Source: a virus. From it: a stretch of 64,000 nt of DNA. Of the stretch, positions 18,376 through 23,192 are shown piece after piece. The stretch spans positions 7,028-71,027 of IMG/VR virus record IMGVR_UViG_3300034103_000398; one strand, written 5' to 3'. The notes below the pieces were generated by a model. That model was not told the DNA's origin. It did not search any database and saw only the letters and a program-made list of their open reading frames with translations. The position numbers and the translations under genes are program-made. Position 1 is the stretch's first letter. Each line of letters starts with the position of its first letter.

Positions 18376-18436
18376 CAGGATGCATTTTTACGTTTTCAAT
18401 TAAAAGTTGAGTGTATAAATTTGCTGTTAGCATCCT
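18376..18436 (-). ncRNA. CAGCAA-stem RNA carrying Lys(UUU) anticodon loop
   Basis: AGGATGC-TAACAGCAAA...TCAA-CTTTTAA-TTGA...GCATCCTG. Confidence 0.75.
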
Positions 18437-18441
18437 TGTTC

Positions 18442-18531
18442 TGGCGGAAGCGGTGAGATTCGAACTCACGGGACGCTTTCACGTCCGGCAGTTTTCAAGA
18501 CTGCTGCCATAGACCACTCGGCCACACTTCC
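18442..18531 (-). tRNA. tRNA-Ser(TGA)
   Basis: loop CTTGAAA, long variable arm. Confidence 0.93.
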
Positions 18532-18538
18532 ATAATTT

Positions 18539-18616
18539 TGGAGGTTCGAGTCAGATTTGAACTGACGGTTTTACGGATTTGCAATCCGTTGCATTGGACC
18601 ACTCTGCCACCGAACC
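18539..18616 (-). tRNA. tRNA-Cys(GCA)
   Basis: loop TTGCAAA, U73. Confidence 0.9.
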
Positions 18617-18623
18617 ATTGTTT

Positions 18624-18719
18624 TGGCGGAGACGGTGAGATTCGAACTCACGGAGCCACGTTTTAGCGTGACTCGACAGGTTAGCAACCTGCTGCCTTAG
18701 GCCACTCGGCCACGTCTCC
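18624..18719 (-). tRNA. tRNA-Ser(GCT)
   Basis: loop TTGCTAA, long variable arm. Confidence 0.93.
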
Positions 18720-18728
18720 ATAAACGTT

Positions 18729-18805
18729 TGGTGCCTCCCCCGGGACTCGAACCCAGAACCAACGGATTATGAGTCCGCTGCTCTAACCAATTGAGCTAGA
18801 GAGGC
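18729..18805 (-). tRNA. tRNA-Ile2/Met(CAT)
   Basis: loop CTCATAA, CCA. Confidence 0.88.
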
Positions 18806-18812
18806 ATTTAAA

Positions 18813-18903
18813 CCATTATAGAAACACATTTAAACAGTCCTTCAACGGTTAGTCGCTATCTCCCTTACTACTCGGGCGGATCTGTATGTGCTTCTATAAT
18901 GGT
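18813..18903 (-). ncRNA. long-stem-closed RNA (family B) overlapping tRNA-Leu CCA end
   Basis: ACCATTATAGAAGCACAT...ATGTGTTTCTATAATGGT. Confidence 0.55.
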
Positions 18904-18984
18904 GCTCCGAGCCGGACTCGAACCGGCACACCTTTCGGCGAGAGATTTTAAGTCTCTTGTGTCTACCTATTTCACCATCGGAGC
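18900..18984 (-). tRNA. tRNA-Leu(TAA)
   Basis: loop CTTAAAA, variable arm. Confidence 0.93.
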
Positions 18985-19000
18985 AAAATCGTAACTATGT

Positions 19001-19087
19001 ATTTTTAAAGATCGTTGTTAAGAAGTGCGATGACTTTCTCAACTCATGTAATGATTGTAACACCATCACGATTTATTGTCAAATTTT
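19001..19087 (-). promoter_or_regulatory. promoter plus boxB-like hairpin plus boxA-like leader (copy 2)
   Basis: TTGACA-17-TACAAT (19054-19082), GATCTTTAAAAAT. Confidence 0.75.
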
Positions 19088-19106
19088 ATTTTGTACTACT
19101 TTTGTT

Positions 19107-19180
19107 TGGCATCCCCTGAAGGACTCGAACCTTCACTAACGGTTTTGGAGACCGGTATGCTGCCATTACACTAAGGAGAT
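19107..19180 (-). tRNA. tRNA-Trp(CCA)
   Basis: loop CTCCAAA. Confidence 0.9.
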
Positions 19181-19186
19181 ATATCT

Positions 19187-19263
19187 TGGCGTGACTAGAG
19201 GGATTCGAACCCCCGACCGTTTGCTTAGAAGGCAAATGCTCTATCCTACTGAGCTATAGTCAC
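19187..19263 (-). tRNA. tRNA-Arg(TCT)
   Basis: loop CTTCTAA. Confidence 0.93.
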
Positions 19264-19272
19264 ATTATTTAT

Positions 19273-19301
19273 ATTATAACAAGGGTTTGATTACTAGTCA
19301 A
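19273..19301 (-). promoter_or_regulatory. sigma70-type promoter
   Basis: TTGACT-17-TATAAT. Confidence 0.75.
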
Positions 19302-19307
19302 ATTGTT

Positions 19308-19382
19308 TGGCTCCCCAGCGTGGGCTCGAACCACGGACCAATTGATTAACAGTCAACTACTCTACCACTGAGCTACAAGGGA
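19308..19382 (-). tRNA. tRNA-Asn(GTT)
   Basis: loop CTGTTAA. Confidence 0.92.
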
Positions 19383-19390
19383 ATAAATTT

Positions 19391-19810
19391 TTAATAACTT
19401 TTACCTTCTTGATATCTTTGCCGTCTACTGTGTCTGCCTTTGCCCCTATTCTTAGACTTGTAAGTAGGAGTCTGGCTGTGACAATTAGGACACAATAATA
19501 TCAAGTTTTCTTCTGTCTGATTCAAAGAGTCGCCATCCTTATGTTCAATTTCTAAGGATATCGGTTCTCCTTGCCAACTATCAATACCGCACTTACAGCA
19601 TTTGTTTTCAAATTTAGTAAACAAATATCTGCGTACATATCCACTTATCTCACCTTGACCCTTAGCACCACTTTGGTTGCCTTGTTGCCATTCAGTAATG
19701 TAAGTTTTGTACTGATATTCTTGTTGACATTTTGTATCACAGTACTTGTTTGTCTTGGCATGAGACCAAGTACAATCTTTTCCGCAATTCAGACATTGGT
19801 AAATTTTCAT
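19391..19810 (-). CDS. HNH endonuclease inserted in tRNA array
   Basis: CCKCG...LEIEHKDG..N....NL.LLCPNCH. Confidence 0.85.
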   Translation of the reverse strand: MKIYQCLNCGKDCTWSHAKTNKYCDTKCQQEYQYKTYITEWQQGNQSGAKGQGEISGYVRRYLFTKFENKCCKCGIDSWQGEPISLEIEHKDGDSLNQTEENLILLCPNCHSQTPTYKSKNRGKGRHSRRQRYQEGKSY

Positions 19811-19864
19811 TGGTTGAGCACTCCTATATTACTATTTATGCTCAACCGATAAAAACTTAAATTT

Positions 19865-19940
19865 TGGTGCTCCCTGTCGGATTCGAACTGACCACCTCCG
19901 CATTACAAGTGCGATGCTCTACCAAATGAGCTAAGAGAGC
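19865..19940 (-). tRNA. tRNA-Thr(TGT)
   Basis: loop CTTGTAA. Confidence 0.92.
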
Positions 19941-21527: not shown

Positions 21528-21535
21528 AATATTTT

Positions 21536-21613
21536 TGGTACTCCCTCTCGGAGTCGAACCGAAAACACTCTTCCTTTTGAGAGAAGCGACTTTGCCAATT
21601 CCACCACAAGGGC
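21536..21613 (-). tRNA. atypical tRNA-Leu(CAA), short variable region, weak acceptor
   Basis: loop CTCAAAA, CCA. Confidence 0.6.
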
Positions 21614-21620
21614 ATTATTA

Positions 21621-21708
21621 TGGAGGAAAGCCAGAGAATCGAACTCTAACCGTTTTCACGATCCTGCTGTTTTCGAGACAGCGGCCAGCCCAGCTGACAT
21701 AACCTTCC
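21621..21708 (-). tRNA. tRNA-Ser(CGA)
   Basis: loop CTCGAAA, long variable arm. Confidence 0.8.
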
Positions 21709-21717
21709 ATTGTAAAA

Positions 21718-21824
21718 CAGGATGCTGTAGTATCGCCGGGAATCGAACCCCTATTTCAACTACGGTGCCCAACTGCACGGCCTGCCAGATTGTTAGCGGC
21801 ATAGGTGTTTGCTGTAGTCATCCT
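21718..21824 (-). ncRNA. CAGCAA-stem RNA with D-like and T-arm hairpins
   Basis: AGGATG-ACTACAGCAAA...GTGC-AGTTGG-GCAC...GGG-TTCGATT-CCC...CATCCTG. Confidence 0.75.
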
Positions 21825-21828
21825 AAAC

Positions 21829-21918
21829 TGGCAGCGAGTGAGAGATTCGAACTCTCGTGCCCCTTTCGGGACCATCACCTTTCCAAGATGCGCCAATAGG
21901 CCACTCTGGCAACTCGCT
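21829..21918 (-). tRNA. tRNA-Ser(GGA)
   Basis: loop TTGGAAA, long variable arm. Confidence 0.85.
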
Positions 21919-21925
21919 ATATAAC

Positions 21926-22003
21926 TGGTACCCTAGGTCGGATTCGAACCGACACGATTCTCCTTTTGAGAGAGACACCTCATTCCAATTGGGTTACTAG
22001 GGC
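21926..22003 (-). tRNA. tRNA-Leu(CAA), short variable region
   Basis: loop CTCAAAA, CCA. Confidence 0.8.
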
Positions 22004-22010
22004 ATAAATT

Positions 22011-22085
22011 TGGTAGTCGATAGTGGTGTCGAACCACTGACCTCTTCGATGTCAACGAAGCGTTCTACCGCTGAACTAATCGACT
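22011..22085 (-). tRNA. tRNA-Val(GAC)
   Basis: loop TTGACAT. Confidence 0.9.
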
Positions 22086-22093
22086 ATATAAAA

Positions 22094-22209
22094 CAGGATA
22101 CTTTTTTCTAACGCTCTACCAAATGAGCTAATCAGGCATGAAGCCTAATGTTGGATTCGAACCAACTACCTTTCGATTTCAAGTCGATAAGATTTGCTGT
22201 TAGTATCCT
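22094..22209 (-). ncRNA. CAGCAA-stem RNA containing a circularly permuted tRNA (Ser UGA loop)
   Basis: order: anticodon arm, T arm, loop-closed acceptor, D arm, inside AGGATAC/GTATCCT stem. Confidence 0.85.
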
Positions 22210-22214
22210 AAAAC

Positions 22215-22290
22215 TGGTCTCCGTGATAGGTCTCGAACCTACGGCCTCAAGTTCCCCGAACTTGCGCTCTTCCAACTGAGCTACACAGAG
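22215..22290 (-). tRNA. tRNA-Pro(GGG), C33
   Basis: loop TCGGGGA. Confidence 0.8.
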
Positions 22291-22297
22291 ATAATTC

Positions 22298-22666
22298 TTA
22301 CAAAGAAGAAATACTCTTCCATTTATACTTTCTAGCGCAATGAATGCTATTATTCAGTGCGCTTGCACACGGAAACCTGTGACCTTTTCTAAAAGTCCAT
22401 TCGTTTATTTTGAATGACTTCAACACCTGATCACCGTTCCACCATCCACGTTCACACTTAATGTAACCTAGTTCTTCTAACTGGTTACGCAACTTTGTAA
22501 ACTCGTCATGGTCTTTGTTACTGATGCTGACACCCTTGTCATATCCCTTAAGAACTTTGATAAGGTCATCATGTGTAGGGTTGTTACGATCTTTGATAAA
22601 GTCGTGTTCAGTCCTAACAGTAACATCACAAATAAAACTTTCATCAATTGTGAATTGTTTCAACAT
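22298..22666 (-). CDS. hypothetical protein
   Basis: 122-aa ORF with AAGGA RBS. Confidence 0.7.
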   Translation of the reverse strand: MLKQFTIDESFICDVTVRTEHDFIKDRNNPTHDDLIKVLKGYDKGVSISNKDHDEFTKLRNQLEELGYIKCERGWWNGDQVLKSFKINEWTFRKGHRFPCASALNNSIHCARKYKWKSISSL

Positions 22667-22831
22667 TATAGTTCCTTATAGATTGGGAGCCTAACTATCT
22701 GACGTTACTCAGCCTTGCTAGATTGTCTCGTACACAAGAGTTTATGCTACCTATGTAATCATACTATAGTGTCACACACCAGCATAGTGTGCTAGATTAC
22801 TCGGGACTCATCGTGCCGTCTATCCCTTAAC

Positions 22832-22906
22832 TGGTACCCGGTGATGGTTACGATCCATCTACAGCTGCCTTATCAAGACAGTACCTCACCATTCGGTCTA
22901 CCGGGT
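22832..22906 (-). tRNA. tRNA-Ile(GAT), atypical T loop
   Basis: loop TTGATAA; T loop ATCGTAA. Confidence 0.75.
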
Positions 22907-22919
22907 ATAAAATTAAATT

Positions 22920-22993
22920 TGGTGCTCCTTGACAGAATCGAACTGCCGTATCCGCGTTACAAAGGCGGTGTAATACCATTATACGAAAAGAGC
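22920..22993 (-). tRNA. tRNA-Thr(TGT)
   Basis: loop TTTGTAA. Confidence 0.85.
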
Positions 22994-22997
22994 TAAT

Positions 22998-23123
22998 TGG
23001 TGGAGATGCCGGGATTCGAACCGCGGACAAGAACTTTTACAGAGTTAGAGCTATAGATTGCTGTGCGAATTCTTGTCAGAATTCGTTTTTTGCTATGCTA
23101 TGCTACCATTACATCACATCTCC
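22998..23123 (-). ncRNA. tRNA-Tyr-like RNA with CAGCAA stem inserted between D and anticodon arms
   Basis: GGAGATG/CATCTCC-ACCA acceptor, D arm, CGAATTCT-GACA-AGAATTCG-CACAGCAAT, AACT-CTGTAAA-AGTT, T arm. Confidence 0.8.
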
Positions 23124-23131
23124 AAAAACAA

Positions 23132-23192
23132 CAGGATGTATTTTTACGTTTTCAATTAAAAGTTGAGTGTATAAATTTGCTGTTAACATCCT
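23132..23192 (-). ncRNA. CAGCAA-stem RNA carrying Lys(UUU) anticodon loop (near-identical to 18376-18436)
   Basis: differs from the other copy by a compensatory C-G to T-A pair in the closing stem. Confidence 0.78.

Follow-up and report, generated by a model that had tools for sequence, protein, structure and literature searches.

The window analysed here is a stretch of 64,000 nucleotides (positions 7,028 to 71,027) of the IMG/VR record IMGVR_UViG_3300034103_000398, a 71-kb fragment of an uncultured lake-water jumbo phage that CheckV rates as about 20% complete. Its minus strand encodes two nearly identical 61-nucleotide RNAs, at 18376-18436 and 23132-23192, each of which carries on a common structural "handle" a hairpin with the anticodon loop of tRNA-Lys(UUU). 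The two RNAs are members of a conserved, covarying RNA family that is tied to a gene for a protein with the Ro60 fold (8483-9898, minus strand), and they mimic the anticodon arm of a tRNA within a constrained frame. Judged from the sequence comparisons, true mimicry of the anticodon arm is well supported and looks to be under selection. The function proposed for these RNAs, that of decoys or sensors directed against anticodon nucleases, is more tentative and is given a probability of about 0.4.

The minimal RNAs are built in a fixed order: AGGAUG(C/U), the single-stranded motif UAACAGCAA, a short lower helix, the 4-bp hairpin UCAA-CUUUUAA-UUGA, an A-rich 3' strand, (G/A)CAUCCU and G. The outer strands form a 7-bp terminal stem; copy 1 (18376-18436) ends in CUGA and copy 2 (23132-23192) in CUGU. 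The copies are identical at 59 of 61 positions. Their sole differences make up one compensatory pair: the 5' stem strand has C or U at its position 7, and the base opposite is G or A accordingly, so that the C-G pair of copy 1 becomes U-A in copy 2. The covariance model R1 described below matches them with 80.1 and 78.3 bits, respectively. The 7-letter loop CUUUUAA is identical to that of the genuine tRNA-Lys(UUU) of the phage at 17768-17842 on the minus strand, a gene missed by ARAGORN and added by the Rfam tRNA model (61.4 bits), its loop being taken from the sequence. These features had been described in an earlier note on this DNA and are borne out. The same note regarded the hairpin as the only cargo, which had to be corrected: folding places a second short helix, UAC/GUA, beneath it. 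In relatives this lower helix (18386-18426 region) changes in a compensatory manner, from UAUAC...GUA to UUAAC...GUUAA in the subfamily alignment, so that the cargo arm is longer than first described. The fold of the whole copy 1 RNA has an energy of -9.4 kcal/mol, with a z-score of -2.3 against shuffled sequences. Neither ARAGORN nor the Rfam tRNA model calls the two minimal RNAs. They are without acceptor, D or T arm, and, by their sequence, cannot be charged because no acceptor end is present. They lie 8.5 and 13.2 kb upstream of the Ro60-fold gene, on the same strand.

The handle that defines the family consists of the 7-bp stem joining the two ends, the single-stranded UAACAGCAA, the A-rich opposite strand and the 3' CUG. 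Gene neighbourhoods were compared in 12 diverse GenBank phages and 80 IMG/VR relatives (72-99% protein identity); the scanner and model counts refer to 93 sources with 1.16 Mb in all. The scanner, which requires a terminal stem of 6 bp, then 1-3 letters and NNCAGCAA, with UG after the 3' strand, found 22 elements on the gene strand and 1 on the opposite strand of the GenBank loci, and 332 against 26 over all sources. Model R1, built from 30 short elements and applied with a cut-off of E up to 0.01, gave 164 matches in the 93 sources, 163 of them on the gene strand. In the whole records of three relatives (767 kb), 10 of 10 matches were on the gene strand, at distances of 15 nucleotides to about 13 kb from the gene. 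The earlier suggestion that the RNAs are protein-held fits this arrangement, in which each of the relatives searched over its whole record has a handle on the strand of the Ro60-fold DUF2828/vWA gene and within about 13 kb of it.

Pairing in the alignment fitted to the model reaches 99.6% in the terminal stem, all seven pairs of which change on both sides, while the cargo hairpin is 85% paired with changes on both sides in five of five pairs; no shuffle or slid register comes close to the pairing values of either helix. The CAGCAA core of the motif is invariant in the 30 aligned short handles. The handle occurs next to the DUF2828 gene in very different phages too. Among them are phages with few tRNAs nearby or none, such as Staphylococcus phage BE02, where three handles stand in a row directly after the gene. 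Short handles (48-66 nucleotides) carry a single hairpin. Long handles (100-135 nucleotides) often contain a circularly permuted tRNA, with the anticodon arm, variable loop, T arm, closed acceptor stem and D arm in this order and with ends that fall between the D arm and the anticodon arm; other long handles have unrelated structured cargo. A role of the permuted forms as precursors of working tRNAs, rejoined at 26/27, was considered and set aside: the minimal RNAs have no tRNA body, and neither RtcB nor an Rnl2-type ligase was found in the records of five relatives, one of which is complete.

The loops of the homologous hairpins are not random: random variation in length and sequence, one of the outcomes that the earlier note named as refuting its reading, is not observed. 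By minimum-energy folding, a YU-NNN-RN loop, the pattern whose enrichment the earlier note had proposed as a check, is formed in 21 of 94 unique short handles, compared to a mean of 0.34 and a maximum of 2 in shuffled sets. When the best hairpin of at least 4 bp is taken instead, YU-NNN-RN is found in 31 of the 94 and CU-NNN-AA in 27, with means over 1000 shuffles of 2.2 and 0.33 (maximum of 3 for CU-NNN-AA). The alignment to the model shows a 7-letter loop in 56 of 110 distinct rows, 31 of which have CU-NNN-AA. These counts rest on an anchoring of our own and on the model-fitted alignment, in which some rows are off by one register; MAFFT placed one subfamily three columns off.

In the 11-member subfamily to which the window copies belong, no change is seen at loop positions 32, 33, 36, 37 and 38; two letters occur at position 34, and all four occur at position 35, as in no other column of the RNA. 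Two members of the subfamily differ at 2 of 62 letters, both within the anticodon, and UAAU, at the place of U36-A-A-U, is present in 11 of 11 members. The homologous loops keep a 7-letter CU-NNN-AA frame over covarying stems and vary mainly at positions 34-35, which agrees with the claim that the RNAs present an anticodon loop. At least one RNA with such a loop occurs in 28 of the 93 sources, and 12 sources have more than one kind. Counted by loci, the displayed anticodons are UUU (10), UGU (6), GCU, UGA and GCA (5 each), GUA (3), GAU and GUU (2 each) and UCU, UUC and GAA (1 each). Similar loops (CU-NNN-AA and, in one case, CU-NNN-AC) are present in four unrelated GenBank phages, Synechococcus phage BUCT-ZZ01, Campylobacter phage F371, Bacillus phage PJN02 and Mycobacterium phage MiniLon; their occurrence in a cyanophage and in phages of Campylobacter, Bacillus and mycobacteria argues that the mimicry is not a quirk of one lineage.

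The predicted partner of the handle RNAs, the product of the gene at 8483-9898, is a protein of 471 amino acids with the domains DUF2828 and DUF7788, the latter a vWA domain with a DxSxS motif (Pfam E = 4e-24 and 1.4e-46, respectively). It falls into phrog_850, 'RNA-binding protein'. Its AlphaFold2 model, made with 64 sequences, has a mean predicted local distance difference test score of 90.3. The top Foldseek matches of the model are the Ro60 entries 2i91 and 1yvp and the Ro60 of phage phiLo (E of about 1e-8 to 1e-6). The 12 best fold matches in the PDB are all Ro60 or TROVE entries, the best being the Xenopus, human, Deinococcus and Thermus-phage Ro60, and the TM-scores to Xenopus Ro60 are 0.58-0.64 (E = 2e-8). 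The MIDAS residues D277, S279 and S281 are invariant in the 64 sequences. The fold match and the invariant residues together point to a ring of HEAT repeats with a vWA domain that has a MIDAS motif. The likeness was found by the fold search only: a phmmer search of the PDB returned no Ro60 and nothing meaningful, and a Pfam scan (E up to 0.01) listed DUF2828 and DUF7788 but no TROVE domain. That the handle RNAs have a Ro60-like partner is well supported. The protein family is very large, with 711 matched GenBank phage records and 6123 representative clusters at E up to 0.001; a protein atlas search returned viral DUF2828 clusters only and nothing on eukaryotes.

Cleavage of tRNA is a common bacterial defence, exemplified by PrrC and PARIS among others, and the known answers of phages are repair enzymes and spare, resistant tRNAs. 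If the decoy or sensor reading is correct, phages would have a third answer in uncharged RNAs that show, on a Ro60-like protein, just that part of a tRNA which is attacked. In this proposal the RNA has two modules. By way of the handle the RNA would dock on the phage's DUF2828/vWA protein of Ro60 fold, in much the way a Y RNA does on Ro60 through its terminal stem. The cargo would reproduce the anticodon arm of a tRNA, including the Lys-UUU loop, and would derive from larger handles that contain a complete tRNA in circularly permuted form. Since the RNAs are encoded between the tRNA genes and on their strand, tRNA processing probably frees them from the array transcript. The particle would offer anticodon arms to proteins that read them, of which host anticodon nucleases that stop translation in the course of infection are the likeliest. 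The RNA would serve as a competing substrate or a sentinel alongside the approximately 50 tRNAs of the phage itself, and related phages would retune its specificity by way of anticodon letters 34-35.

Several published observations, taken from the accessible parts of the reports, make such a mechanism feasible. For PrrC the anticodon stem-loop supplies the main cues, and isolated analogues of this stem-loop are cleaved by the enzyme (PMC1950546). AriB, the nuclease of PARIS, targets the tRNAs for lysine (UUU), threonine (UGU) and asparagine (GUU), which have U36-A-A-U in common, and its authors raise competition by viral tRNAs as a means of inhibition (PMC12409363). A Ro60-like protein of a Felixounavirus, whose gene lies just upstream of the tRNA genes, is a counter-defence protein (PMC11482910). 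Each of the 251 records that match the FelixO1 gene in our searches covers at least 80% of it. The protein studied in that work is presumably of the DUF2828 family, as is gp130 of phage Bas63, which was not among the matches listed (60 of 251) for the FelixO1 gene.

A number of findings weigh against the decoy or sensor reading. The Felixounavirus protein countered Ppl by itself, supplied from a plasmid or from T7 and without phage handle RNAs, so that counter-defence need not involve these RNAs (PMC11482910, accessible part). The AriB model also contacts the D loop (PMC12409363, accessible part), and a bare arm may therefore be a poor ligand for nucleases of this kind. The 4-bp, A/U-rich hairpin is weak on its own. 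Among the 13 short handles found by the scanner in the 12 GenBank loci, 10 have no anticodon-like loop; the copy adjacent to the Ro60-fold gene in the window has a 9-letter loop, and the complete relative G001 has only 2 model matches. The counted sequences are mutually related, and the shuffle statistics overstate their independence. Counted by type, the seeming limitation to anticodons with a final U or A lacks significance: those ending in G or C make up 1 of 11 types compared to 7 of 20 among the CU-NNN-AA tRNAs of the phage itself. Finally, the contigs of four metatranscriptome runs over 17700-23900 derive mostly from related phages or from tRNAs of other organisms (90-99% likeness, many rearrangement joints); one contig in each of two runs spans 22920-23137, and contigs of this kind are no guide to transcription, ends or strand.

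The same particle might serve another purpose, in which the anticodon arm is a bait or tether that recruits or titrates tRNA-modifying enzymes, aminoacyl-tRNA synthetases or tRNA-repair enzymes. The modifying enzymes to be considered would be those acting on A37 next to U36 or A36, or on wobble bases. Nearly all displayed anticodons end in U or A followed by A37-A38, and an anticodon ending in U or A with A37 after it is the context of the t6A and i6A classes of modification. Bacterial YrlA RNAs are substrates of tRNA-recognising enzymes (PMC4201824, accessible part), and the window encodes tRNA-related enzymes such as a QueC-like protein. Also in favour are the P-loop kinase with weak likeness to polynucleotide kinase and the DSP/PTP-type phosphatase encoded just downstream of the Ro60-like gene, and the gene context elsewhere: RtcB and an RNA ligase are encoded close to the gene in Listeria phage LMLPA3, as is an RNA ligase right beside it in Serratia phage BF. 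Against this, neither RtcB nor an Rnl2-type ligase turned up in the records of the five relatives mentioned above, and letters 34-35 are replaced fast between copies that are otherwise nearly identical, as one would sooner expect from an arms race than from a housekeeping bait. A bait is considered unlikely.

It is likewise improbable that the RNAs are ordinary Y-RNA-like partners, which gate the Ro60-like ring or tether it, for example to an exoribonuclease, and in which the hairpin is a readerless leftover of an ancestral tRNA cargo. Such tethering has precedents in Ro60/Y-RNA particles that bind PNPase, one of them from a phage (PMC12135203 and PMC4201824, accessible parts). It would also agree with the many handles whose cargo is not anticodon-like and with the phenotype of the protein alone (PMC11482910, accessible part). 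A leftover, however, should decay evenly, whereas positions 32, 33, 36, 37 and 38 are invariant, the stems covary and only 34-35 change; moreover, the same frame recurs in five unrelated phage groups. The last explanation, that no stable RNAs exist and the elements are processing spacers, terminator-like hairpins or decayed tRNA fragments, is most improbable: their location between tRNA genes, single-sequence folds only modestly better than shuffles and metatranscriptome contigs that are uninformative on expression would suit it, but against it stand the strand bias of 163/164, the covariation of both helices, the invariant CAGCAA core and the fact that handles, such as the three of BE02, accompany the DUF2828 gene even where tRNAs nearby are few or absent.

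The decoy reading can be taken further, to a re-programmable panel of decoys on a Ro60-like chassis that is retargeted by letters 34-35 only. The Class I RNAs of Dictyostelium, which are defined by the same handle, would then belong to this kind of particle as its eukaryotic representatives. This wider version is rather doubtful. Should the decoy reading hold, it would assign a function to the very large DUF2828 protein family, extend Y-RNA biology from mimicry of the tRNA body to mimicry of the anticodon arm and provide a lead on the Dictyostelium Class I RNAs. Its prediction is directly testable with existing nucleases and culturable phages. What the present analysis contributes is a numerical test of the display of anticodon arms, together with the way in which positions 34-35 change.

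The window contains 12 copies of the plus-strand form of the 3' part of the motif, compared to 2.55 expected. True handle copies number eight: the two minimal RNAs and the elements at 9914-9970, 9982-10235, 10247-10409, 21716-21824, 22094-22209 and 23739-23796. All the window elements share the minus strand with the Ro60-fold gene, and three of the handles lie directly upstream of it, within 0.6 kb. The first of these (9914-9970) is a short handle RNA that abuts the ribosome-binding site of the gene; it is the copy with the 9-letter, not anticodon-like loop, and has 42.9 bits with R1 and a weak fold (z = -0.57). The second (9982-10235), recognised from the scanner and the sequence as was the third, is a large handle RNA of about 254 nucleotides with other structured cargo. 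The third (10247-10409) is about 163 nucleotides long, has the terminal stem AGGUUAG/CUAACCU and carries a cargo that is kept in relatives. Just upstream of the three, an open reading frame of 78 amino acids at 10455-10691 on the minus strand matches RNA polymerase omega/Rpb6 (Pfam PF01192, E = 4e-12).

The handle RNA at 22094-22209 contains a circularly permuted tRNA, with an anticodon arm, variable loop, T arm, closed acceptor stem and D arm; its fold shows the four expected hairpins (z = -4.14), and it scores 35.8 bits with R1 and, below threshold, 29.4 bits with Rfam YrlA and 27.2 bits with Rfam tRNA. Its loop CUUGAAA is, as the earlier note had it, that of tRNA-Ser(UGA) at 18442-18531. 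The Tyr-type loop CUGUAAA, proposed in the same note, is also confirmed as that of tRNA-Tyr(GUA) at 16877-16963. It belongs to the element at 22998-23123 on the minus strand, which is known from the sequence, the scanner and a weak tmRNA-clan match. This is a tRNA-like gene with open acceptor ends and CCA, whose anticodon arm is replaced by a CACAGCAA module ending in the hairpin loop. The design is the inverse of that of the handle RNAs, the CACAGCAA module and the Tyr-like loop being placed inside a tRNA-like gene. The handle RNA at 21716-21824 has tRNA-like cargo with a T arm and is kept in two relatives; its single-sequence fold is no better than shuffles (z = -0.42). The handle RNA at 23739-23796 has the variant motif UUCAGCAA and 30.5 bits with R1. 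Its supposed Pro-like loop UUUGGAU is doubtful, as it differs from both tRNA-Pro loops of the phage at 37-38 and does not form a 7-letter loop in the minimum-energy fold; a relative has a longer stretch at this place.

Two handle loci of other phages deserve mention. In Mycobacterium phage MiniLon, the handle RNA (L005:6686-6741, loop CUGCUAA, 46.9 bits) lies inside an annotated coding sequence of 47 amino acids, 'gene 58', right after the gene of a 'Ro-like RNA binding protein'; the coding sequence is possibly a mis-call. In Listeria phage LMLPA3, the DUF2828 gene and three handle RNAs have a ROOL-like large RNA (L006:3470-4021; 89 bits, just below the threshold of 99.1 bits) about 0.6 kb upstream of them, and RtcB and the RNA ligase belong to the same locus.

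Downstream of the Ro60-fold gene the minus strand encodes, between 4662 and 8372, the DSP/PTP-type phosphatase (7908-8372), a GIY-YIG endonuclease (7212-7895), a faint phosphoesterase open reading frame (6219-6761), the AAA_33 P-loop kinase, whose likeness to polynucleotide kinase is faint (5748-6209), and a SpoT-like HD hydrolase (4662-5231). NCBIfam matches of the kinase and the phosphoesterase were all far below threshold. These genes may, weakly, be taken as a set for the healing of RNA ends.

ARAGORN finds 49 tRNA genes in the window, every one on the minus strand, and at the gathering threshold Rfam reports tRNAs only. The array is interspersed with homing endonucleases, the QueC-like gene and other genes. 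It includes a tRNA with the anticodon UUA, which would read the UAA stop codon (24147-24219, minus strand; ARAGORN 'tRNA-Stop', Rfam tRNA 42.5 bits). Three odd tRNA-like genes are left uncalled by the tRNA finder, at 23283-23378, 25098-25265 and 25425-25531, all on the minus strand. A weak tRNA-Sec match of 21.2 bits belongs to one of them, which contains two hairpins like a T arm; the others have long inserts flanked by acceptor and T arms.

Among known systems, the closest in the purpose proposed are the phage tRNAs that neutralise tRNA-cleaving defences, such as the tRNA-Lys, -Thr and -Asn of T5 against AriB of PARIS (PMC12409363, accessible part). In both cases RNA genes of a tRNA array would answer nucleases that attack the anticodon arm, and Lys UUU and Thr UGU are prominent in both. 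The T5 tRNAs, however, are working, cleavage-resistant replacements, whereas the handle RNAs could only compete or signal. PrrC, which reads the stem-loop of tRNA-Lys(UUU), is the kind of reader that the proposed decoy would engage; base modifications are further cues for this enzyme (PMC1950546, accessible part), and no PrrC-type gene or host is known for the lake phage.

In the handle itself, the likeness is to the Class I RNAs of dictyostelids (Rfam RF01414), which are 42-65 nucleotides long and have a 5' G, a short end stem, an 11-letter motif and a 3' CUGU (PMC7919456). The near-invariant letters of that motif, U, C, C, A and A at positions 3, 6, 9, 10 and 11, all match UAACAGCAA, and the handles share the length, the 5' G, the short end stem, the A-rich 3' strand and the 3' CUG(U). 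The Rfam model Dicty_Class_I_RNA aligns over its full length (positions 1-56) but with scores of only 21.5 bits (18376-18435), 19.9 bits (9914-9969) and 23.1 bits (Listeria phage element), compared to a threshold of 41.5. The present elements belong to a phage and not an amoeba, have no DUSE promoter, which in the amoeba lies about 60 nucleotides upstream, and sit inside a bacterial-type tRNA array. The known binding protein of Class I RNAs is the RRM protein Rnp1A.

The closest relatives in architecture are bacterial Ro60 (Rsr) with YrlA and YrlB (Rfam RF02553; PMC4201824) and the Ro60 of Thermus phage phiLo with Yrl1 and Yrl2 (PMC12135203), both sources being cited here for their accessible parts. 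Shared with them are a Ro60-fold ring protein that has a vWA domain, small RNAs on the strand of its gene (three handles within 0.6 kb of it, but the two minimal copies 8.5 and 13.2 kb away), an end-joining stem beside a conserved single-stranded motif and a further module with mimicry of tRNA; in the element at 22094-22209, the T arm, closed acceptor stem and D arm follow one another as in YrlA. The two minimal RNAs, in contrast, are without these three parts and keep the anticodon-arm-like hairpin only. The window protein is DUF2828/DUF7788 in Pfam, with no TROVE listed, and sequence search of the PDB does not lead from it to Ro60. The YrlA motif near the 5' end, GNCGAAN0-1G, contains the CGAA proposed to contact Ro60 (PMC4201824, PMC12135203). 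The handle motif is ACAGCAA, within UAACAGCAA, and the 61-nucleotide RNAs contain no CGAA. The best element, 22094-22209, reaches 29.4 bits in its tRNA-like part compared to the gathering threshold of 69 bits, and the minimal RNAs are unmatched. The literature covered holds no description of an ACAGCAA handle or of anticodon-arm display on a Ro60-like particle, although the phage YrlA candidates in the supplement of PMC4201824, outside that coverage, could overlap. The handles keep a complete anticodon arm, which in the minimal RNAs is the sole tRNA part, a feature absent from the accessible descriptions of YrlA and phiLo (PMC4201824, PMC12135203). The system would work like Ro60 with YrlA-type Y RNAs, yet it stands outside YrlA both by score and by the CGAA motif.

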